Below, one piece after another: positions 5,993 through 55,375 of a stretch of 64,000 nucleotides of DNA. The stretch comes from Patescibacteria group bacterium (GTDB taxonomy: Bacteria > Patescibacteriota > Patescibacteriia > UBA2591 > JAQUPP01). The stretch's first letter is position 1, and every line of letters begins with the position of its first letter. The DNA lies in contig JAQUPP010000001.1 in assembly GCA_028716665.1 (NCBI GenBank), positions 282,860-346,859 of the forward strand, given 5' to 3'. Under the pieces are notes generated by a model that did no database searches, had not been told where the DNA came from, and saw only the letters and a list, made by a program, of their open reading frames with translations. Both the position numbers and the translations under genes were made by a program.

Positions 5993-6064
5993 GCCCAAGT
6001 AGCTCAGTGGTAGAGCAACTCCATGGTAAGGAGTAGGTCGTCGGTTCAATCCCGACCTTGGGCT
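5993..6064 (+). tRNA. tRNA-Thr (anticodon GGT)
   Basis: Cloverleaf folded by hand: acceptor gcccaag/cttgggc, anticodon arm actcc-atGGTaa-ggagt, T-arm gtcgg-ttcaatc-ccgac; no encoded CCA. Confidence 0.85.
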
Positions 6065-6069
6065 TTTTT

Positions 6070-6152
6070 GGGTGGGTAGCAAAGTAGTCAAATGCGGCAG
6101 ACTGTAAATCTGCTGGCTTCGGTCTTCGTAGGTGCAAATCCTACCCCACCCA
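6070..6152 (+). tRNA. tRNA-Tyr (anticodon GTA), long variable arm
   Basis: Acceptor gggtggg/cccaccc; anticodon arm gcaga-ctGTAaa-tctgc; class-II variable arm; T-arm gtagg-tgcaaat-cctac. Confidence 0.85.
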
Positions 6153-6156
6153 CTTT

Positions 6157-6227
6157 GCCGTCCTAGCTCAACTCCGACGTTTTAGAGTCGGAGTCCCGAC
6201 CTCCAATGGAGCGTCGGGATGGACAGG
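6157..6227 (+). pseudogene. tRNA-like remnant: the first 15 nt of tRNA-Thr(TGT), 'gccgtcctagctcaa', fused to a ~56-bp double-hairpin repeat element
   Basis: 18-nt direct repeat 'tttgccgtcctagctcaa' (6154-6171 and 6250-6267); hairpins ctccgac..gtcggag and tcccgac..gtcggga; the 3' 'ggacagg' is a degenerate acceptor strand. Confidence 0.6.
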
Positions 6228-6252
6228 AAATTTATTATGATTTAAATTTTTT

Positions 6253-6324
6253 GCCGTCCTAGCTCAATGGTAGAGCAACAGTTTTGTAAACTGTAGGTTC
6301 TCGGTCCGATCCCGAGGGACGGCT
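6253..6324 (+). tRNA. tRNA-Thr (anticodon TGT)
   Basis: Acceptor gccgtcc/ggacggc; anticodon arm acagt-ttTGTaa-actgt; T-arm ctcgg-tccgatc-ccgag. Confidence 0.85.
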
Positions 6325-6367
6325 TATAAATAATTTTTTAATTTTATTTAATTGTTAATTCAAATAT

Positions 6368-6523
6368 ATGTCTCAAGAAAATTTGATTAAATTAGAATGT
6401 ACAGAGTGCCACAAGATAAACTATTATTCTAAAAAGAATAAAAAGACAATTAAGGAACGTCTTCAATTGAAAAAATATTGCCGTTCTTGCCGAAAACACG
6501 TTTTGCACAAAGAAACGAAATAG
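6368..6523 (+). CDS. rpmG: 50S ribosomal protein L33
   Basis: 51-aa ORF '[51 protein letters not shown]' with the L33 CxxC...CxxC zinc ribbon; absent from the ORF track because it is under 60 aa; conserved rpmG-tRNATrp synteny. Confidence 0.85.
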
Positions 6524-6563
6524 TAGTTTTATTTAATGGTAAAATAAACCCCGCCAGAGCTTT

Positions 6564-6634
6564 GGGGGTGTCGTTCAATGGTAGAATAGCGGTCTCCAAA
6601 ACCGTTGATGAGGGTTCGATTCCTTCCACCCCCG
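6564..6634 (+). tRNA. tRNA-Trp (anticodon CCA)
   Basis: Acceptor gggggtg/caccccc; anticodon arm gcggt-ctCCAaa-accgt; T-arm gaggg-ttcgatt-ccttc. Confidence 0.85.
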
Positions 6635-7666: not shown

Positions 7667-7695
7667 TTGACAAAACCCAAAAAATATGCTATTAT
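7667..7695 (+). promoter_or_regulatory. Sigma70 promoter with extended -10 (TTGACA-N17-TGcTATTAT), conserved family
   Basis: ttgaca 7667-7672, 'aaaatatgc' spacer, tattat 7690-7695. Confidence 0.55.
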
Positions 7696-7733
7696 TTAAA
7701 CATAATAACCGTTCTTAAAAAAGGGAGGGGAAA

Positions 7734-8363
7734 ATGTTTAATCAGATATTACTAATAGTGAAAATAGCAGCACTAGTGGTTGTTGTGAGCTGTTGGATTG
7801 TATGTGTTGTGGCAAGGAACAACAAAAGTATAAGTTGGAAGGTCTGCATAATTGCCATAGGTACGTCGGTTGCTACTACTGTTATGATGAGTATTTTTGA
7901 GTTTAAACATGGCGATAAGGTGGGGTTTTGCTTTTTAATAGCTTGGACAGTTCTTTTTTTGTTCTTTTTTAAGATGAGTATATTAAAACTTAAAAAGATT
8001 AAAGAAGCTAATCTTATTGGATCTACTAAAACAGGTATAATTCCAAGTTTATATGAGGGAGACACTCTGACGTATAACCTTAAGGGACTTGATCTTCCGA
8101 GACAAGAGGGTGAGTCAGATTGGGAATACCGTCAACGGGTTTTCCCCGAGTTGTACTTCAAAAAGGGATTTACTGTGGCTATTTCAATGCTTATGGGTTG
8201 CAGTGTAACGGAGCTAAGTGACACAGAAAAGATGGTTCTTCTTTCCTCTATGCCCAATGAACCTGAGAACATGAATAGTCATGGGAGGAAGCAGTTTCTT
8301 TTCCAGCTTAAGAATTTCGCTCGAGGTTTTTCAGAAGACCCGCTTAAAACTCGCTCAAAATAA
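7734..8363 (+). CDS. Hypothetical membrane protein
   Basis: Three N-terminal TM helices; strong SD 'gggagggg'; no recognisable domain. Confidence 0.4.
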   Translation: MFNQILLIVKIAALVVVVSCWIVCVVARNNKSISWKVCIIAIGTSVATTVMMSIFEFKHGDKVGFCFLIAWTVLFLFFFKMSILKLKKIKEANLIGSTKTGIIPSLYEGDTLTYNLKGLDLPRQEGESDWEYRQRVFPELYFKKGFTVAISMLMGCSVTELSDTEKMVLLSSMPNEPENMNSHGRKQFLFQLKNFARGFSEDPLKTRSK

Positions 8364-47312: not shown

Positions 47313-49001
47313 TTAATTTACAAGTTTTACAAATTTCAAACTTTTCTTTCCGATTTTCAGGAAATAAATTCCTGAATTAATCGTTTTCCCTAACTCATCT
47401 TCGCCATCCCAAACTGATTCTTTCGGCGATAATTTTTTGACAACCCTTCCGGATATGTCATAGATAGTCGCTTCCGATTCTGAACCCATATTTACAATAT
47501 GCAGTTCTTTTTGGAATGGGTTTGGCCAAACGGAGAAATCTGTGGTTATCTGAATTTTTTCTTCCGTTTCTGCGATGCCGATAATTTCTTCATCCGATGT
47601 CCAGCTAAAATTGTCTAAACAAAAACAATTTTGCGGTATGGGAAATTGTCCCCTGAATTCAACTGTGACGATAGTATCCATTCTTGGAGTAAAAAATTCT
47701 CCTTTTTTGCCCGTATATCGGAAAGTTTTTCCTTTGTTATCAGAAATTACAATCGTATCTCCATCTGCCAAATCAAGATAATTGAAATGAAATCTTGTGC
47801 CCTTGATTCCGCCATTTGAGAAACAATAATGTTTTTCTTTAATCGTGTCATTGATAGTAGGATTCCAATATGGATGATAATAATCATCCGACCGACCAAA
47901 GTACCAATAATATGGGAAATTATTAGTTTTCAGATACTCGTCCCAATTGGTATTTACACTGGATGAAAGCCCATTATAAGTCGTATCGTAATTTCTAGCT
48001 GTCTGCGGGAAATAAATACCAATTACTTCTTGAAGTTTTTGTGAGGCTGGATCATAAACAATCATCTCATCAATATCTTTGACGATGTTATTAGCTATTG
48101 CTCTGATTGAAACAGAAAGTAATGGATCATCGCGAAGTTTTATAGCAAAACTTCCCAATCTTGTTCTTTCGTTAATATATCCTACGTCGTTAATTAGAAT
48201 TTCATCATCGATAATTTGTTGTTTAACACTATCTGATTCTGTTTTTAGAATCAATGCTAAACTGTTAATATCCTGAGTTAATTGATCTATTCCCGAAGTT
48301 TTGATTGCCGAGAATCCATCTGTCTTAGCAAGCGCTACGGCCAAACTTTCTTGACACCAAGATGGATTTTCAAGCAGTCTAATGAAATAAGTCAATCTCT
48401 GGGGGGCATTAGCAGTTGTCCAGCAACCTACTGTCAAATCTACGAGACTTAATAATTCTTGTTGAACTTCCCACTGCTGCATCTGACAGGCCATTAATCC
48501 GAGAATATTGATGTTTTGACCGATTGCTTGTTTTACTCCCGTAATCGCTGTTTTAAATCTTTTATTGGGAATACTCATCCAATCAAAAGGATTTTTATCC
48601 TGAATGATACCATGCCAATTACAGCCATGGCCGTAGAGTATTAGGGCATATTTAGATGTGGTACCCATTTTTTGAATCGCCGCTTGCGAAAATTTTATCA
48701 GTTCGTTTTCATCAGCCATATTAATTTCAGAATCAATAATTTCTTCTACTGATGAATCCCCAAATAAATAATATCTTCGAGTTGGTATGCTGTCGTCAAA
48801 AGCATCTATTTCTATGGCGACATTTACTGGATAAGATTTACCCACGAAATCCATATTACTAATTATGGATTTACAATATTTTTCAGTAATTTCTTGTAAA
48901 TTACCATCCCCACAGATATAGAAAAGCATTGTCCAATCTGCTGTTGCTTTTGGTGTAAAGTTAGAAACTTGTAATAAAATTGTAAAGAACAGGTTAAACA
49001 T
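47313..49001 (-). CDS. Secreted clostripain-like (C11, clan CD) cysteine peptidase with a T9SS-type C-terminal sorting domain
   Basis: 'WTMLFYICGDGNLQ' C11 N-terminal motif; catalytic His 'LILYGHGCNWHG' and Cys 'LGLMACQMQ'; C-terminal 'WPNPFQKELHIVNMG..ATIYDISGRVVKKL....GIYFLKIGKKSLKFVKLV' resembles the Por_Secre_tail domain; SD 'aagggggat'. Confidence 0.7.
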   Translation of the reverse strand: MFNLFFTILLQVSNFTPKATADWTMLFYICGDGNLQEITEKYCKSIISNMDFVGKSYPVNVAIEIDAFDDSIPTRRYYLFGDSSVEEIIDSEINMADENELIKFSQAAIQKMGTTSKYALILYGHGCNWHGIIQDKNPFDWMSIPNKRFKTAITGVKQAIGQNINILGLMACQMQQWEVQQELLSLVDLTVGCWTTANAPQRLTYFIRLLENPSWCQESLAVALAKTDGFSAIKTSGIDQLTQDINSLALILKTESDSVKQQIIDDEILINDVGYINERTRLGSFAIKLRDDPLLSVSIRAIANNIVKDIDEMIVYDPASQKLQEVIGIYFPQTARNYDTTYNGLSSSVNTNWDEYLKTNNFPYYWYFGRSDDYYHPYWNPTINDTIKEKHYCFSNGGIKGTRFHFNYLDLADGDTIVISDNKGKTFRYTGKKGEFFTPRMDTIVTVEFRGQFPIPQNCFCLDNFSWTSDEEIIGIAETEEKIQITTDFSVWPNPFQKELHIVNMGSESEATIYDISGRVVKKLSPKESVWDGEDELGKTINSGIYFLKIGKKSLKFVKLVN

Positions 49002-49131
49002 TTTATCCCCCTTTGTTTGAAAATGACCCTTTTTCGAGTCATTTATTGCCAAGCGAGCGAGGGAAAAGAAAATTTATTTTCTTTTCCGAGCGAGCGCTGG
49101 CAACACAGGGTCTAGTACCCTTTATAAATTA

Positions 49132-49285: not shown

Positions 49286-51343
49286 ATGCGCAATAAAATG
49301 AAGTCCGCCAAAGCCCTTGGCAAAAGTGGAAAAAAATTAATTTTATCTTCAAAACTTATTTATTTTCTGGTTTTTTTATTTGTTATTTGTTTGGGAATAG
49401 AAAGAGCGGGAGCAACCGTGCCGAGTCAATATATTATTTCCGACAAAGCGATAAAAATGGGAAATACCACGCCCTTGAAAATTTTTAATTTAGGCACTCC
49501 GGAAGAATCCACGGATGCCACGACAAAACAATATGTTGATTCAATTGCCACGGGCACGGGCGCGATTGGTCTTTGGATGTCCAATGGTGTTGATATTTAT
49601 AATAATAATTCCGGCAACGTCGGTATCGGATCAACAATACCTTCTGCCAAACTGGATGTTGCGGGAGATATTCGTTCAAAAGGAATTTCAAGTTTTCTCA
49701 TAAATACTCAGAATGAGGGTATTGCAATTTTATATCCCGAAACTGCCAATACATATACCCGAATCGGTCCGACCGGTTTTTCTCCAAGTCTTGCAAGCGG
49801 CGCAGATGATTTGGCAATTGTTGGTAAATTGGAAGTAGCGGGAATAGGTTATTTTAACTATAATGTCGGTATCGGAACAACCGGACCAACGCATCATTTG
49901 GAAGTTATTGAGAGAAATGATGGATATGGAGATTGGAGTCATGGTGTTTTGCCTTTTCAACCGGCGGGTGTTTTTATTCAAGCCAGCAATGTTAATTCAG
50001 CCGGTCTTTATGGCGAAGGTTATACTCGAGGTGTTTGGGGAGTGGCGCGAGCCAATGGAGGAAGTGGCTATGGTATTTTGGGAGAAATGGGAAGCGGAGA
50101 ATGCTCTTGGCCTCTTGATGATGCAACGGGTGGCGCTATTGTTGGTGTGACTAATTGTTCATCAGGTAATTCTGGGGTAGCAATAAGGGCAACTGTATTA
50201 ACCGGTGTTGAAGGGTATGGCATTTATTCTCAAGGAAATTTAAGTAAAAATTATTTTGAAGGCAATGTCGGTCTTGGATCGACAACACCGGCCGCTGATT
50301 TGGATATTAACGGTAATGCTCAATTGAATATTCTTTATGATCGCGTTAATTCAAATTATCATCTTGATCTTGGCGCAAATACATTTACCAGTTCTTTGAC
50401 TGTTGCCGGTAATATTGGTATTGGCGTGACGAATCCCGGATATAAATTAAGTATGGCTGACACTGGCAGTTATATTGGGGCGAGTTTTAAATTTGGCGGA
50501 TCTTATGTTCCGGTAAATATAGTTGGCGGTACAAATGTGGGAGCCTATTGGCGTGAAAATTTTATTGGTTCAAATATTGATTTAGATACGACTACTGGAA
50601 AACCCAAAACCAGTGTAAATGGTTATCGAGGAGGAGCGATCGGATTTGCTCCCGATCCCGGGCAAGGACAAATTCATTTTTTTACCAATGCGGGTTCTAC
50701 TGCCGGAACGGTCTTGTCTGAAAGAATGGTTATAGACAGCGCGGGTAATGTCGGTATTGGAATGGCGCCTTCGTACATACTTGATGTTACGGGCGGTCAT
50801 GGAGCAAAAGTCGCAAGATTTACGGGAGGCACCAGCGGAGATAAAAGTTTGTATATGTATGCGGATAGTGGCGGCTCCGGCATAACTGATGCGGATACTT
50901 ACAAAGAATTAATTTATCTTAAGCCGGCGGATAATTCTATAAATTTTTACAATAATGGCAGCGGCCCGAACGTGACGATAAATGCTACCGGCAAAGTCGG
51001 TATCGGAACAACCGCGCCGAATTCCACTCTTCATGTTAATGGTTCTTTCACGAGAGCAATAGTAACCAAAACTTCAACTTATACGGCAACCGCTTCGGAC
51101 GATATTATATTATGTGATGCATCCGGAGGAGGTTTTGTAATTACTCTTCCCACCGCAGTGGGTATTGCCGGAAGAGAATATACGATAAAAAAAATAGACA
51201 GTTCAGCAAATCAGTGCGGTTATACCACGACATCAGGTCAGACAATAGATGGAGTTGCGCTGACTTATCAATTAGGCACTCAATGGCAGACAAGAACAAT
51301 GGTTTCAGATGGAACGAATTGGATAAGATTGTCAAATATTTAA
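49286..51343 (+). CDS. Large tail-fibre-like surface protein (~685 aa) with GNVGIGTT repeats
   Basis: Signal/TM; 'IFNLGTPEESTDATTKQYVDS' tail-fibre-like N-terminal motif; repeats; the ORF-track start at 49241 overlaps its own promoter. Confidence 0.65.
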   Translation: MRNKMKSAKALGKSGKKLILSSKLIYFLVFLFVICLGIERAGATVPSQYIISDKAIKMGNTTPLKIFNLGTPEESTDATTKQYVDSIATGTGAIGLWMSNGVDIYNNNSGNVGIGSTIPSAKLDVAGDIRSKGISSFLINTQNEGIAILYPETANTYTRIGPTGFSPSLASGADDLAIVGKLEVAGIGYFNYNVGIGTTGPTHHLEVIERNDGYGDWSHGVLPFQPAGVFIQASNVNSAGLYGEGYTRGVWGVARANGGSGYGILGEMGSGECSWPLDDATGGAIVGVTNCSSGNSGVAIRATVLTGVEGYGIYSQGNLSKNYFEGNVGLGSTTPAADLDINGNAQLNILYDRVNSNYHLDLGANTFTSSLTVAGNIGIGVTNPGYKLSMADTGSYIGASFKFGGSYVPVNIVGGTNVGAYWRENFIGSNIDLDTTTGKPKTSVNGYRGGAIGFAPDPGQGQIHFFTNAGSTAGTVLSERMVIDSAGNVGIGMAPSYILDVTGGHGAKVARFTGGTSGDKSLYMYADSGGSGITDADTYKELIYLKPADNSINFYNNGSGPNVTINATGKVGIGTTAPNSTLHVNGSFTRAIVTKTSTYTATASDDIILCDASGGGFVITLPTAVGIAGREYTIKKIDSSANQCGYTTTSGQTIDGVALTYQLGTQWQTRTMVSDGTNWIRLSNI

Positions 51344-51443
51344 ATTTAAGATATTTTAAAAGGGTGGGTCGGTAATGGGCTTGCCCTTTTCTTTTTGTAA
51401 AGCTGCAAATTAATTCCTAAAGCCTAAAAAGATAATAACGGGC

Positions 51444-51472
51444 TTGACAAAACGTCTAAAATATGCTTAAAT
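51444..51472 (+). promoter_or_regulatory. Conserved-family promoter (TTGACA-N17-TTAAAT; alternative TATAAT at 51475)
   Basis: 'acgggcttgacaaaacgtctaaaatatgcttaaatgatataat'. Confidence 0.5.
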
Positions 51473-51560
51473 GATATAATAAATAGCTTGAACAATAATG
51501 TTTAGCTAAATAAAACTCGCCTACGCTTAGAAAGTTACGGCGTGGCAAGAAGGAGGAAAA

Positions 51561-52436
51561 ATGTTCTTTAAAATTTTACTAATTGTAGTTTTATCGGTTT
51601 TATTATCAGGATCTGTTTTTTCACAATCTGATTGGGTAGGAGTAGATTCAAATAATGCGCCATCAGCTATTAAAGCGCGTTATTCAAAGGATTGGTTTCG
51701 CAACACAAATACTGTAGAGATTTCTCAAGAACACGGGAATCTTTTTAACAGCCGGCAAAGCCTAAAAATCACCTATATATCAGGGAATATGCAATGCGGG
51801 GACTGTATGTTTATGAAAGTGTTTAACCCGCCAATTCAGATTCAAAGTGATACTCTTTTTTTGAATGCCGAGATTAAAGGTTTCCAAAATGACGATTCAG
51901 TTTATCAAATCAGGGTACATCCCTTCATGTTAAATAATGATAGTATTTTTGAGGCCGACAATTCCATGTGGACAGATACGTCTTGGACACAAGAGGAATG
52001 CGGGCCATTCAGGAAAGAATACAATTATGGTCTTTTTCCTAGAACGATAGATACTCTATTTTTTACTATTAACATATTGGTAAATGATGTTTCTAATCCT
52101 TATGGTATTTACATGGATAATATTTGGTATCTGGACTCTAATGGGGAACAGGTTATAATTGATTCTTGTGGAGAAGATATTGCCGCGGAAGAACCGGGGA
52201 AAATAAAGGATTTAGTTTCTGCTTTCCCAAATCCGTTCTACGATTTTTGCAAATTCAATGCGCCGGCAAATTCTTTGATTGAGATTTACAACCTCAGCGG
52301 TCAAAAAGTTAAGATGATTAAGAATTTTTCTTGGAACGGCCGGGATGAAAATGGCAAAAAATTGCCAAGAGGAATGTATTTTGCAAGTTTTAAAATTGGC
52401 GATAAAACTATGGTGAAGAAATTAGTTTTGATATGA
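51561..52436 (+). CDS. Secreted protein of unknown function with a T9SS-type C-terminal sorting domain
   Basis: Signal peptide; C-terminal 'FPNPFYDFCKFNAPANSLIEIYNLSGQKVKMI...GMYFASFKIGDKTMVKKLVLI'; strong SD 'aggaggaaaaatg'. Confidence 0.6.
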   Translation: MFFKILLIVVLSVLLSGSVFSQSDWVGVDSNNAPSAIKARYSKDWFRNTNTVEISQEHGNLFNSRQSLKITYISGNMQCGDCMFMKVFNPPIQIQSDTLFLNAEIKGFQNDDSVYQIRVHPFMLNNDSIFEADNSMWTDTSWTQEECGPFRKEYNYGLFPRTIDTLFFTINILVNDVSNPYGIYMDNIWYLDSNGEQVIIDSCGEDIAAEEPGKIKDLVSAFPNPFYDFCKFNAPANSLIEIYNLSGQKVKMIKNFSWNGRDENGKKLPRGMYFASFKIGDKTMVKKLVLI

Positions 52437-52566
52437 TGATTACTTATTATGTTGCGGGCAGGATGAAAACCTGCCCGTTTTTTTATTCATATAAAAATGT
52501 AAATATTTTATGTAGAAATTAGTAAATAATAAAACGTAGTATTCATCAGTATTCTAGGTGAGGGGC

Positions 52567-52595
52567 TTGACAAAAATCAAAAAATATGCTAATAT
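52567..52595 (+). promoter_or_regulatory. Conserved-family promoter with extended -10 (TTGACA-N17-TGcTAATAT)
   Basis: 'aggggcttgacaaaaatcaaaaaatatgctaatattta'. Confidence 0.55.
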
Positions 52596-52599
52596 TTAT

Positions 52600-52880
52600 A
52601 TAGAAAATAAAATAAATTCTTCACTTTTCTGTCTATCAGCGACAAAACCAGTCATCCCTCCTAACTGGGAAGTAGTCGCAATTCAAGGTTGATCTTGTTT
52701 GTCAAGCGTAGGCCTTGGGCTGATAGACATAAAAGTGGAGGATTTAAGGGAAGAGGTCATTGGCCTTGCCCCGTAGTGAACTGAGCTTGTCGAAGTTCTA
52801 CTACTGGGGTTCAAATCCAATGGCGGGTATTTGTACAAAGTTCATTTAAAATTAAAAACTAAAAAAGTAGTTTCGAAGAA
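52600..52880 (+). ncRNA. Candidate structured non-coding RNA or long structured 5' leader (~280 nt) with no plausible ORF
   Basis: 11-bp long-range helix tgtctatcagc (52631-52641) / gctgatagaca (52718-52728) enclosing nested hairpins gcgac...gtcgc and ccagt-catccctcctaa-ctgg (CCUCC loop); T-loop-like 'ggggttcaaatcc'; lies downstream of a strong promoter. Confidence 0.4.
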
Positions 52881-52897
52881 GAAGGAGGAGGACAAAG

Positions 52898-53002
52898 ATG
52901 CCAGGAATGAATTATCTGATAGTAATTTTAATAATTTTTATATTAGTAATTCATTTTACATTAGAGAATAGAAAAAATAGGAGAAAAAGGAGGATAAAAT
53001 GA
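52898..53002 (+). CDS. Small hydrophobic peptide (34 aa) whose stop overlaps the next start (ATGA)
   Basis: Strong SD 'gaaggaggagg' 6 nt upstream; 'MPGMNYLIVILIIFILVIHFTLENRKNRRKRRIK'. Confidence 0.4.
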   Translation: MPGMNYLIVILIIFILVIHFTLENRKNRRKRRIK

Positions 53003-53373
53003 AAAAACTTTTGATAGTAATGGGTATATTAGTGATATGTCTTTTTGCAGGGTGTACACAAACTCCAACACAGGTGACAACCACGCCAGAGTCAAAAATA
53101 GTGGAATTTCCCGATCTTGACATAACCGTTACTTTTTATTATGCCAAACCAGGAGAATTGCCAAAGATTAAAATAGATAATCATAATGAAAATGGCGCAG
53201 ATGTCCTGATTGAGAAGGAGACAAATGAATATGAGGAGTGGCTAAATGTCTTTCATGAAAACATAGGAGGAAATTCCTCGGTTATTAAAAACAAAGAATT
53301 CATACCAGGGAAAAAACACAAAATAACCATTAAATGCGAAGAAGTTACTCGAACAGGATATGTAACTCCGTAA
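52999..53373 (+). CDS. Lipoprotein of unknown function
   Basis: Signal peptide with lipobox 'LFAGC'. Confidence 0.5.
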   Translation: MKKLLIVMGILVICLFAGCTQTPTQVTTTPESKIVEFPDLDITVTFYYAKPGELPKIKIDNHNENGADVLIEKETNEYEEWLNVFHENIGGNSSVIKNKEFIPGKKHKITIKCEEVTRTGYVTP

Positions 53374-53438
53374 TAATAAAGAGCTCGAGATTTTAATCAA
53401 GTAAGATTAAAATTGAGAGCTCTTTTTTCTTACAAAAA

Positions 53439-54032
53439 CTAATTGTATAAACTCATGGTTTTTTCTATTCCTTGTTCCAGAGCCGCAGAGATTGCTTCAA
53501 CAGTTGATTCTTCTGTTTGTTTGAGAAGTTTTTTTTCGCCGACAGAGAAATTTTTTAAAACTAAATCCATAGCTTTCTCCGACGCTTTGGTCGGAGTCCC
53601 GACCCCTTGGCGTCGGGATTGATTTTGAGCGGAGTGATTAATGCCGATTCTGAATCTGACGAAATTTTTCGTTTTTAAATTATCAATAATTGACTGAACG
53701 CCATTATGACCGGCAGACGAGCGATTTATGGAAATCCGAATTTTTCCCAATGGCAAATCCATATCATCATGAATAACCCACAGATTGGAATTTGGAATTT
53801 GGAATTTAGAATTTAGAATTTTAACCGCCAGTCCGGATTCGTTCATAAATGTGGTTGGAATAACCAAACAAACTTCGCCTTTTTTTGAGATTTCAGCTTT
53901 AAAATTTTTGTTCAATTTGAAAGTTGGAAAATCAAAAGTTTTGGCAAAATCCATTACTATTTTTTGCCCGATATTATGGCGGGTATTTTTATATTGTTCG
54001 CCCGGATTTCCCAGACCGATAATAAAAATCAT
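53439..54032 (-). CDS. pth: Peptidyl-tRNA hydrolase carrying an in-frame ~14-aa repeat-element insertion
   Basis: 'IIGLGNPGEQYKNTRHNIG', 'PTTFMNESG', 'HDDMDLPLGKIR', 'GHNGVQSI', 'RFRIGI'; insertion 'SAQNQSRRQGVGTPTKAS' encoded by the double-hairpin element (53577-53620); heptamer tandem (5 units) at 53786-53823. Confidence 0.85.
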   Translation of the reverse strand: MIFIIGLGNPGEQYKNTRHNIGQKIVMDFAKTFDFPTFKLNKNFKAEISKKGEVCLVIPTTFMNESGLAVKILNSKFQIPNSNLWVIHDDMDLPLGKIRISINRSSAGHNGVQSIIDNLKTKNFVRFRIGINHSAQNQSRRQGVGTPTKASEKAMDLVLKNFSVGEKKLLKQTEESTVEAISAALEQGIEKTMSLYN

Positions 54033-54043
54033 AATATTTATTA

Positions 54044-55375
54044 TTAACCTATTAAATTCATTCTAATGGGAGTTCCTTCAAATTGCCAGTGCTTTCTTAT
54101 TTCTTTTTCCAAAATATTTATTTGAGCCGGATTGATTAATTTTCTTTTTAATGTATTGCGCGAAGCTTTTAGATTGAATGTCGGAGGCTTTGCCGAGTTT
54201 TGACTGATTTTGATTTTTTTCCAAATTTTTTGCTCGAATTTTTTATCGCTGATAACTTTTTTGAAAAATTCAGTAAGTTCTTCTTTCTCAATCAAGCGGT
54301 TGGAATTTTTTTCCACTTGCTCAATAAGATTGAAAATTATGTTTACATTTTTTCCCGTTTTGGCCGAGATAAAGACGATCGGCGCAAAGCTGGCTTGAGC
54401 GAAAACTTGCTGGTAATATCTGATAAACTTGTCAAATTTAGCTTCAAAATTGGAAATTTCATCGCATTTGTTAATGACCAAAATCAATCCCTTGCCCGTT
54501 TCCGTGGCCAAGTTTAACAATGATTTGTCTTGGTGGCTGATAATTTCTTTAACATCAAAAACATCAATAATAATATCGGCTTTTTGAGCGGCAAAAATTG
54601 ATTTTTTAACTCCGGTTTGTTCAATCTCTGATTGAATTTTTCTTTTTCTGCGAACACCGGCCGTGTCAACCAAAGTGATGAATTTTTCATTATGGCAAAT
54701 TAAAATATCTTGCGGCTCGCGGGTGGTGTGGGGGATATTGGAAACGATTACCCGTTCTTCTCCGATTAATTTATTTATCAAAGTTGATTTGCCGACATTC
54801 GGTTTGCCGAAAATCGCAACTTTCGTGCTGGACGGCGCGGATGTTTCAAATTTTTCCGGTTGATCGCCGAAAGATTCAAGCGTTTTTATGATTTCATCCA
54901 ATAAATCTCCGGTCCCGATGCCGGTAACGGCCGAAACAGGGTAAGCTTGATTGGTTCCTAATCTTTGCCATTTGAGTTCGTCAAGAAAATTTCTTTTTTT
55001 CAAAGAATCCGCTTTATTGAAAATTACAAAAAACGGTTTTTTGGATTTTTTTATTATCTGGCTTAATTTTAATTCAAAGTGAGAAATTTTTTCATTAACA
55101 TCCAAAACAAAAAGAAGAAGATCCGCTTCTTTAATCGCTACGGAAACTTGTTTTTCAACTTCTCTTTCCAGACTCGACGGTTCTGATTTTTCATTAATCA
55201 ATCCGCCGGTGTCAATCAAAATGAATTTTTTGGTTTGCCAAGAACAGATATCATAATTTCTGTCCCTGGTTGTTCCGGGCATTGACGAAACAAGCGCCTT
55301 TGATTTTGAAATCAGGCGATTAAATAAACTCGATTTTCCGACATTGACTTGACCCACTAAAGCAACTTTATACAT
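54044..55375 (-). CDS. der: Ribosome-biogenesis GTPase Der/EngA (tandem GTPase domains plus KH-like domain)
   Basis: Two P-loops 'GQVNVGKSSLFNRL' and 'GKPNVGKSTLINKL'. Confidence 0.9.
   Translation of the reverse strand: MYKVALVGQVNVGKSSLFNRLISKSKALVSSMPGTTRDRNYDICSWQTKKFILIDTGGLINEKSEPSSLEREVEKQVSVAIKEADLLLFVLDVNEKISHFELKLSQIIKKSKKPFFVIFNKADSLKKRNFLDELKWQRLGTNQAYPVSAVTGIGTGDLLDEIIKTLESFGDQPEKFETSAPSSTKVAIFGKPNVGKSTLINKLIGEERVIVSNIPHTTREPQDILICHNEKFITLVDTAGVRRKRKIQSEIEQTGVKKSIFAAQKADIIIDVFDVKEIISHQDKSLLNLATETGKGLILVINKCDEISNFEAKFDKFIRYYQQVFAQASFAPIVFISAKTGKNVNIIFNLIEQVEKNSNRLIEKEELTEFFKKVISDKKFEQKIWKKIKISQNSAKPPTFNLKASRNTLKRKLINPAQINILEKEIRKHWQFEGTPIRMNLIG

Follow-up and report, generated by a model that had tools for sequence, protein, structure and literature searches.

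A conserved structured small RNA gene next to pth in Parcubacteria with an invariant anti-Shine-Dalgarno-like loop

The stretch of DNA analysed here, hereafter the window, comprises 64,000 nucleotides (nt) of a low-GC (35.5%) Patescibacteria contig (JAQUPP010000001.1 of assembly GCA_028716665.1, positions 282,860 to 346,859 of the forward strand), and positions are counted from its first letter unless a related locus is named. Within it, 52600-52880 had been predicted from the letters alone to be one promoter-driven, structured non-coding unit of about 280 nt. Here, we report that 52613-52747 on the + strand (domain 1) is almost certainly the gene of a conserved structured RNA of about 140 nt, delimited by covariation, by the covariance model (CM) R1 and by homologues found with nhmmer and the CM. 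The 280 nt did not hold up as a single unit but are made of three parts of different origin: the conserved RNA, a decayed tRNA-like element, and an A-rich spacer followed by a Shine-Dalgarno (SD) sequence. The best overall explanation, to which we assign a probability of somewhat under one half, is a stand-alone small RNA (sRNA) of the Parcubacteria, probably abundant and acting in trans through a hairpin loop that resembles the anti-SD sequence of 16S rRNA. No family of Rfam 15 reaches its gathering threshold at 52600-52880, and a search of 52400-53050 at E<=10 gave only mir-153 (19 bits) and transfer-messenger RNA (tmRNA, 5.5 bits) inside that region. A distant homologue (locus L009) gave nothing above 23 bits, and no published description of this RNA was found in a full-text literature search. 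The sRNA is a previously undescribed family within a known kind, the bacterial structured sRNAs.

The consensus fold of 21 close sequences (RNAalifold) is a three-way junction of P1, P2/P2a and P3/P3a. P1, the closing helix, pairs 52613-52640 with 52719-52747 over 26-27 base pairs (bp) and includes two U-G wobbles compatible with the + strand only. The 11-bp long-range helix that had first drawn attention to the region is real and forms the inner part of P1, with the correction that it joins 52630-52640 to 52719-52729 and not 52631-52641 to 52718-52728. The P2 arm (52641-52677) has a base helix, 52641-52643/52675-52677, and an outer helix P2a, 52648-52652/52664-52668. The base helix corresponds to the three inner pairs of a proposed gcgac/gtcgc helix; these are supported, whereas the top of P1 competes for the outer two. 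Between the two helices lies an internal loop with AAAA (52644-52647) opposite GAAGUA (52669-52674) in the window and AGUA opposite GAA in distant members, the latter resembling, on sequence grounds, the signature of a sarcin-ricin/loop-E-like S-turn. P2a had been foreseen as the ccagt/actgg hairpin; it is present and supported by covariation, and its apical loop (52653-52663), CAUCCCUCCUA (catccctccta), presents the invariant AUCCCUCCUA. Equally supported is the caagg..ccttg hairpin, which is the P3 arm (52684-52717, pairing 52684-52690 with 52711-52717) and carries an inner hairpin P3a (52696-52700/52704-52708). P3 is kept in the clade that bears a lipoprotein gene downstream, and one to three unrelated hairpins take its place in distant members.

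The pairing is conserved in homologous loci and is accompanied by extensive covariation. In a MAFFT alignment of the 21 close sequences, 98.5% of the cells are paired and compensatory double changes occur in 16 of the 42 pairs. Sliding the pairing partners, a control that keeps relatedness, lowers the paired fraction to 33-51%, and none of 500 column shuffles, which are not corrected for phylogeny, matches the observed pairing. With 26 distinct sequences the paired fraction is 98.8% (36-48% when partners are slid) and compensatory changes reach 26 of 42 pairs, among them all five of P2a and 15 of the 22 modelled pairs of P1; this larger alignment was fitted to the model and so favours the structure, a bias of which the 21-sequence MAFFT count is free. 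About 12 clearly distinct independent lineages stand behind the comparison. The length of P1 stays within 22-26 bp across members despite its many compensatory changes. As a single sequence, 52600-52897 (298 nt) has a minimum free energy (MFE) of -93.5 kcal/mol (z = -4.7), and none of 200 dinucleotide shuffles folds as well. Three observations indicate the + strand: CM R1 scores 148.9 bits there against 29.6 on the - strand, G-U pairs are frequent, and the promoter lies on the + strand. Invariant in 26/26 sequences are the loop AUCCCUCCU (alignment columns 50-58), AGUAG on the 3' side of the P2 internal loop, a single A on the 5' side of that loop, and a few positions of P1.

Coding potential does not account for this conservation. 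As predicted, only short mechanical open reading frames (ORFs) lie between the promoter and 52898, and no frame is open across the homologues. A frame of 193 amino acids (aa) running through the RNA in L005 was discarded as a mechanical extension upstream of the real lipoprotein start with its own SD and ATG. Two structural candidates were rejected as well: a hammerhead-like CUGAUGA in L005, which lies inside P1 and is not conserved, and a pseudoknot between CCUA of the loop and UAGG of P3, where a G to A change in P3 is uncompensated and P3 itself is absent from distant members.

The distribution of the RNA was established in several ways. A scan anchored on pth, the gene for peptidyl-tRNA hydrolase that converges on the sRNA in the window, covered at least 12 loci with one genome per species, and in each of the pth-anchored lineages examined pth accompanies the sRNA. 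With nhmmer the first ~135 nt (52613-52747) were found in four distinct relatives, always on the strand opposite pth. Two of these (L003 and L004, Pth 81% identical) carry a domain 1 that is 99-100% identical, followed by a tRNA-like element and then by a homologue of the window's lipoprotein gene, while in the other two (L005 and L007, Pth 52-55% identical) the tRNA-like element is absent and domain 1 ends 10-45 nt before the SD of the lipoprotein gene. Conversely, among eight members of the lipoprotein family that were looked up, all eight have the sRNA directly upstream. A pattern scan of metagenomes, able to find only the close type of the sRNA, returned at least 24 stretches, and nhmmer recovers the sRNA in 24/24. 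Distant members were found by CM R1 in L009 and in all three further pth-anchored look-ups (41-56 bits, E 1e-8 to 1e-11), one of the genomes concerned being Parcubacteria GW2011_GWA2_42_11. Altogether, nhmmer and the CM yield at least 26 distinct homologue sequences, and the sRNA is kept across lineages whose Pth is only 41-43% identical to that of the window (L009). The window holds a single copy, and BLAST and CM R1 found no second RNA in it. A search of viral contigs with the pattern ATCCCTCCTAN{4,14}AAGTAGYC gave 13 matches, none of which was confirmed by the CM.

Three of the records concerned (L005, L007 and L010) are titled 'uncultured Gammaproteobacteria', yet they share the Parcubacteria-type pth-der-lytR locus, the lipoprotein and the sRNA, and have probably been given wrong taxonomy labels. 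Beyond pth, within about 4 kb on its far side in L069-L075, the genes ybeY, yqeY, rpsU (S21), a HIT-family gene and hisS were seen upstream of lytR-pth. YbeY and S21 both act at the 3' end of 16S rRNA; this ybeY/rpsU arrangement is not shared by the window and may be plain synteny.

A possible mode of action is suggested by the loop, since AUCCCUCCU equals the anti-SD tail at the 3' end of 16S rRNA, AUCACCUCCU, minus one A. The loop motif is both invariant and unpaired in the covariation-supported fold, and its predicted duplexes with local SDs (-10.6 to -11.2 kcal/mol) compare with -12.2 to -12.9 kcal/mol for a 16S-type tail. The sRNA would thus be transcribed on the + strand from a near-consensus promoter at 52567-52595, its ends would be locked in the 26-bp helix, and the functional core would be the P2 arm presenting AUCCCUCCUA. 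As an abundant trans-acting RNA it might pair through the anti-SD-like loop with purine-rich SD regions and so damp or tune translation initiation, the nearest targets being the strong SDs of the genes that follow the sRNA, apparently on the same transcript. Taken by itself, SD pairing as the mechanism is a tentative proposal that we hold at distinctly less than even odds, although it is slightly favoured; its main rival is a role as protein decoy or scaffold. More doubtful is the further possibility that the sRNA mimics the 16S 3' tail, competing with ribosomes for SD sites or titrating a factor that reads the tail. Mimicry of the whole 16S 3' domain was rejected: apart from the 9-nt loop string, the family consensus compared with the last 120 nt of E. 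coli 16S rRNA shows no significant similarity, its local alignment being no better than that of shuffles and shared 6-mers giving p about 0.07.

Several points weigh against trans-action by SD pairing. Sites matching the loop target TAGGAGGGAT with at most one mismatch are not enriched in the 64-kb window (4 against 2.75 expected), and the complementarity of the loop to the adjacent SDs is limited to the generic 6 nt AGGAGG. The positions flanking CCUCC (AU.., ..UA) are invariant too; generic SD pairing leaves this unexplained, and a partner that is a protein or a specific RNA would account for it better. An S-turn-like loop together with a closing helix of 26 bp is found more typically in ribonucleoprotein or decoy RNAs than in sRNAs that pair through a seed. 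Folded as a single sequence, the window RNA has an MFE structure with UCCC/GGGA in preference to the conserved CCAGU/ACUGG; because part of the loop is mis-paired in that fold, its accessibility rests on the comparative structure. The transcript ends, the abundance and the processing are all deduced from sequence. Finally, most members of the window's clade have no terminator between the RNA and the lipoprotein gene, and a role in cis is possible there.

Several of these features would be expected if the RNA bound a protein, the P2 arm with its S-turn-like AGUA/GAA loop and C/U-rich AUCCCUCCUA being the binding site and the abundant RNA serving to titrate or deliver its partner. Sarcin-ricin/loop-E motifs are frequent protein-binding sites, and the KH domain of Era binds the 16S 3' end; a candidate partner would be a factor with a KH domain whose usual target is the 16S 3' tail, in the way that Era recognises GAUCACCUCC. 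The invariance that reaches past CCUCC to AUC..UA and AGUAG is in favour of such a scaffold, as are the long closing helix that sequesters both ends, a loop that equals the tail AUCACCUCCU except for one missing A (the E. coli tail being the one compared), and the lack of an enriched specific mRNA target in the window. However, the A that is missing falls inside the GAUCA element read by Era, the RNA as a whole shows no significant resemblance to the 16S 3' domain, and, apart from pth and der, conserved linkage offers no gene for a partner protein. We consider a decoy or scaffold rather unlikely, if still worth weighing.

That the RNA is an independent gene and not a dedicated leader we hold to be quite probable, because it has its own promoter and terminator in distant lineages and is kept where there is no downstream gene. 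A promoter of the arrangement GGGGCTTGACA...TATAAT/TAATAT is kept upstream of every sRNA homologue. In L009, L069/L070, L071 and L073 the promoter (GGGGCTTGACA-17-TATAAT) is followed by the RNA and by an intrinsic terminator 10-60 nt after P1, with nothing downstream of the terminator on the sRNA strand. L052 and L047 retain promoter and RNA intact, the RNA abutting the stop codon of the convergent pth with no lipoprotein gene, and the same layout was read from the sequence of L035. Among these three the RNA is 91-97% identical and pth is 76-81% identical at the nucleotide level (63-70% at third codon positions), and since this holds without a downstream gene, selection acts on the RNA itself. 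In L042 a lipoprotein start was not found in the 180 nt available downstream of the sRNA. An own promoter (in all members), an own terminator (in distant members) and the lack of a conserved ORF are what a stand-alone sRNA gene is expected to have.

The opposing view is that of a cis-regulatory leader or riboswitch of the small-peptide/lipoprotein operon, with the junction as sensor of a ligand or of temperature and the CCUCC loop masking the SD. It draws on 16 of the 21 close-clade sequences, where the RNA lies 8-45 nt upstream of the lipoprotein SD on the same strand with no terminator between them, on junction and loop nucleotides that are as highly conserved as in aptamers, and on the ability of the loop to pair with AGGAGG. 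A leader would always lie upstream of a co-oriented gene, yet the RNA is kept without one in at least eight lineages (L052, L035, L047, L009, L069/L070, L071 and L073) and has its own terminator in the distant ones. A tRNA-like gene intervenes before the SD in L003 and L004, as does the relic of one plus 150 nt in the window. There is no expression platform: P1 and the SD have no terminator-like site between them, none of the covarying helices includes the SD, and the loop matches it only through the same generic AGGAGG. The 22-26-bp P1 is also atypical of a switching aptamer. A leader as primary function is thus largely refuted and very unlikely, and the original prediction, which had left the choice between leader and independent sRNA undecided, is upheld in the second alternative and fails in that of an SD-sequestering leader, the SD being in no conserved pairing. 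In the window itself the sRNA is now probably the 5' part of the small-ORF/lipoprotein mRNA, because between the two there is no terminator and no separate promoter of comparable strength. The lipoprotein arrangement looks secondary, as if genes had been inserted between an older sRNA gene and its terminator.

The element could also matter as DNA or as a transcript end, as a buffer between convergent genes, an antisense regulator of pth, or a 5' stabiliser or RNase III stalk, given its convergent placement beside pth in every pth-anchored lineage and a near-perfect helix of 26 bp, long enough for RNase III. A terminator or stalk would need neither the invariant unpaired loop and AGUAG nor the covarying P2a; pth may be as near as 3 nt or as far as 1.1 kb, and in L009 and L069 other genes intervene; and separate terminators exist, which together leave this reading quite improbable. 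Least probable of all is a highly divergent, lineage-specific housekeeping RNA (6S, signal recognition particle (SRP)/4.5S, Y RNA or similar) missed by Rfam, since the strong constitutive-type promoter, the helix pairing the 5' and 3' ends, the conservation down to 41-43% Pth identity and the transcript shared with a tRNA-like element in some genomes, reminiscent of operons of stable RNAs, are set against the lack of any Rfam 15 family at E = 10 on the window RNA or at E = 5 with a meaningful score in L009, of a tmRNA call by ARAGORN, and of an rsr/TROVE gene among the scanned neighbours, and against a three- to five-way junction that is neither the rod with central bubble of 6S RNA nor an SRP hairpin with a GNRA loop.

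Comparison with known RNAs places the stand-alone sRNA nearest to several kinds without assigning it to any. With RsaE/RoxS and the hairpins of RNAIII in Gram-positive bacteria it shares an unpaired C/U-rich hairpin-loop motif complementary to SDs and, with RsaE/RoxS, the stand-alone gene with own promoter and (in distant members) terminator, independent of Hfq-type 5' seeds. It differs from RsaE/RoxS in having no sequence or structure homology, a single loop instead of repeated C-rich motifs, a 26-bp closing helix with a three-way junction, and a home in the candidate phyla radiation (CPR); the likeness would be one of mode of action, not of family membership. Like 6S RNA and YrlA, it has ends paired in a long helix, a strong promoter and internal loops that could bind protein, and like YrlA it has a tRNA-like module attached in some relatives. 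Unlike 6S RNA, it lacks a central bubble resembling an open promoter, has a three-way junction (five-way in L009) and gives no 6S match in Rfam. Unlike in YrlA, the tRNA-like module lies outside the closing helix and not inside it, in one sub-clade only; the ten neighbouring proteins, within the +/-6 kb in which rsr was looked for, contain no TROVE domain, and Rfam gives no match. Three-way-junction riboswitches and 5' leaders share with it a conserved junction and loop and, in one clade, the position directly upstream of an SD, whereas its persistence without a downstream gene, its terminator elsewhere, the P1 of 22-26 bp and the missing expression platform set it apart from them. The loop has the same string, minus one A, and the same potential for pairing with AGGAGG as the 16S 3' tail, but is closed in a hairpin loop of 11-15 nt and is not a free 3' end.

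The earlier exclusion by eye of tmRNA, RNase P and SRP agrees with Rfam and ARAGORN. For tmRNA, ARAGORN reports none, RF00023 matches 11 nt at 5.5 bits, and no 5' strand complementary to GGCGGGT was found. For SRP (4.5S) RNA and RNase P there is no Rfam match at E<=10, and neither domain IV with a GNRA loop nor CR-I to CR-V motifs were seen. A match to the wcaG RNA (52421-52510, +; 26.8 bits against a gathering score of 42) was set aside; it coincides with the hairpin of the upstream gene's terminator and is almost certainly due to chance. Over the whole window, the Rfam 15 scan at gathering thresholds gave only four tRNAs (5993-6634).

The second part of the region, 52755-52829 (+), is the relic of a tRNA-like element, recognised by alignment to L003, L004, L033 and L041. 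A T-loop-like segment had been noted in the original prediction; it is truly tRNA-derived, but it belongs to this separate decayed element and not to the conserved RNA. What survives of the element (52808-52829) is the T loop, the 3' strand of the T stem and the 3' acceptor strand; other sequence has taken the place of the 5' half, and a long hairpin, ccccgtagtgaac...gttctactactgggg, has been gained by insertion. The segment ggggttcaaatcc (52806-52818) and the aatggcgggta that follows align exactly to the T arm and 3' acceptor strand of the relatives' element, in which the same 3' sequence, GGTTCAAATCCAATGGCGGG, forms the T arm and acceptor strand (L003, L004, L033). Neither ARAGORN nor Rfam (RF00005) calls the relic a tRNA, and it has no cloverleaf; L041 carries a sister version that is likewise not recognised.

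Intact tRNA-like genes lie directly 3' of the sRNA, between it and the lipoprotein gene, in L003 (7138-7219), L004 (7085-7166) and L033 (1572-1649), all on the - strand, and also in L038. They have good acceptor, D and T arms, and an 'anticodon' arm with a 6-bp stem and a loop of 9-10 nt that differs between close relatives. ARAGORN calls 'tRNA-Tyr' (GTA) in L003 and L004. By inspection the L004 element has C33 and U37 in the anticodon loop and a stem that pairs poorly, and RF00005 scores 44 bits in L033, where 17 nt replace the 11-nt anticodon-loop segment of the model. None of the three has a canonical anticodon loop (7 nt, U33, purine at 37), and these genes are probably not decoding tRNAs; they may be processing signals. 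The arrangement recalls tRNA 'punctuation' and MALAT1-mascRNA, in that an acceptor/D/T-arm element follows the sRNA and a cut by RNase P/Z could define its 3' end, and departs from it in the aberrant anticodon arm and in the window copy, decayed and unrecognised by the tools. The tRNA-like element would have been inserted in the window's clade, where cleavage by RNase P/Z in relatives may free the sRNA, and would then have decayed in the window to 52755-52829.

The 14-mer TGAGCTTGTCGAAG stands at the apex of the relic hairpin (52782-52795), with a chance expectation of 0.06 in the window. In the L005 clade (L005 5270-5358 on the - strand, L030 2707-2795, L040, L051 and L053) this 14-mer recurs as the core of a 25-nt unit, present in four tandem copies exactly at the expected site of the sRNA promoter. 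A small mobile repeat and an operator for a protein are both conceivable.

Patescibacteria/CPR account for a substantial part of bacterial diversity, and our literature search turned up no conserved CPR-specific sRNA. What marks out the sRNA reported here is how widely it occurs within the Parcubacteria, its constant place beside pth and an invariant loop resembling the anti-SD; it is also conserved far more tightly than its neighbour, the essential gene pth. It offers a testable candidate for a lineage-wide post-transcriptional or ribosome-related function where few regulators are known. With the CM, a region that at present goes unannotated or is wrongly called as small ORFs can be annotated, and the locus documents tRNA-like elements and their decay beside an sRNA gene. 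If the RNA did mimic the 16S 3' tail, it would be a global throttle on translation initiation in ultra-small, regulator-poor bacteria; to our knowledge, such a global throttle by an anti-SD mimic has not been described for any bacterium.

The surrounding locus is identical over 52437-53000 in two contigs of metagenome-assembled genomes at NCBI (GCA_028713475.1 and GCA_028690995.1). Upstream, a gene for a protein with a Por_Secre_tail domain (51561-52436, +; domain search) ends in an intrinsic terminator (52454-52478, +; terminator scan). The sigma-70-type promoter of the sRNA, 52567-52595 (+), comprises a -35 TTGACA (52567-52572), a 17-nt spacer and an extended -10 TGcTAATAT (52587-52595). Its description as the strongest copy is borne out: with 10/12 consensus matches and the TG present it is the joint-best match in a scan of 51000-54500, and the predicted transcription start is ~52602. 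Beyond the sRNA and the relic, an A-rich spacer without terminator (52830-52897, +) contains the predicted strong SD gaaggaggagg (52881-52891), followed by the ATG at 52898. From 52478 to 53373 the terminator scan detected no candidate terminator on the + strand.

The gene directly behind this SD is a species-specific 34-aa ORF in the ORF list, MPGMNYLIVILIIFILVIHFTLENRKNRRKRRIK (52898-53002, +), that encodes a single hydrophobic helix with a very basic tail and overlaps the lipoprotein start (ATGA). It is missing from the relatives (L003, L004 and L007), where the lipoprotein has a longer signal peptide, and judging by its sequence it may be a type I toxin or small membrane protein. The 124-aa lipoprotein (52999-53373, +; lipobox LFAGC) has no Pfam match, and its AlphaFold model (predicted local distance difference test score 82.7) is an immunoglobulin (Ig)-like beta sandwich with only weak matches in the PDB (DUF3244 3d33, E 0.009). 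An assignment of function from this fold was dropped, the Ig-like sandwich being generic, the matches weak and a ligand hint lacking. In a set of 5.8 billion proteins the family forms only 15 clusters, every one from Patescibacteria, and it diverges rapidly (24-51% identity) next to an almost invariant RNA. An inverted repeat with a T run, read from the sequence at 53380-53423, is a putative terminator shared with the convergent pth (53439-54032, -; domain search and pth-anchored look-ups).

Two observations elsewhere in the window may be added. At 7667-7698 (+) there is a promoter look-alike with 29/32 bases identical to 52564-52595, and only ~35 nt of leader separate it from a 209-aa membrane-protein ORF (7734-8363); by this comparison a leader of ~300 nt is unusual for the genome. 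The genes at 47313-49052 (-) and 51561-52436 (+) encode secreted proteins with Por_Secre_tail/CHU_C domains (E about 3-5e-8), one of them a clostripain-family peptidase. Such domains are sorting signals of the type IX secretion system, which is known from Bacteroidota, and their presence in Patescibacteria is unexpected.

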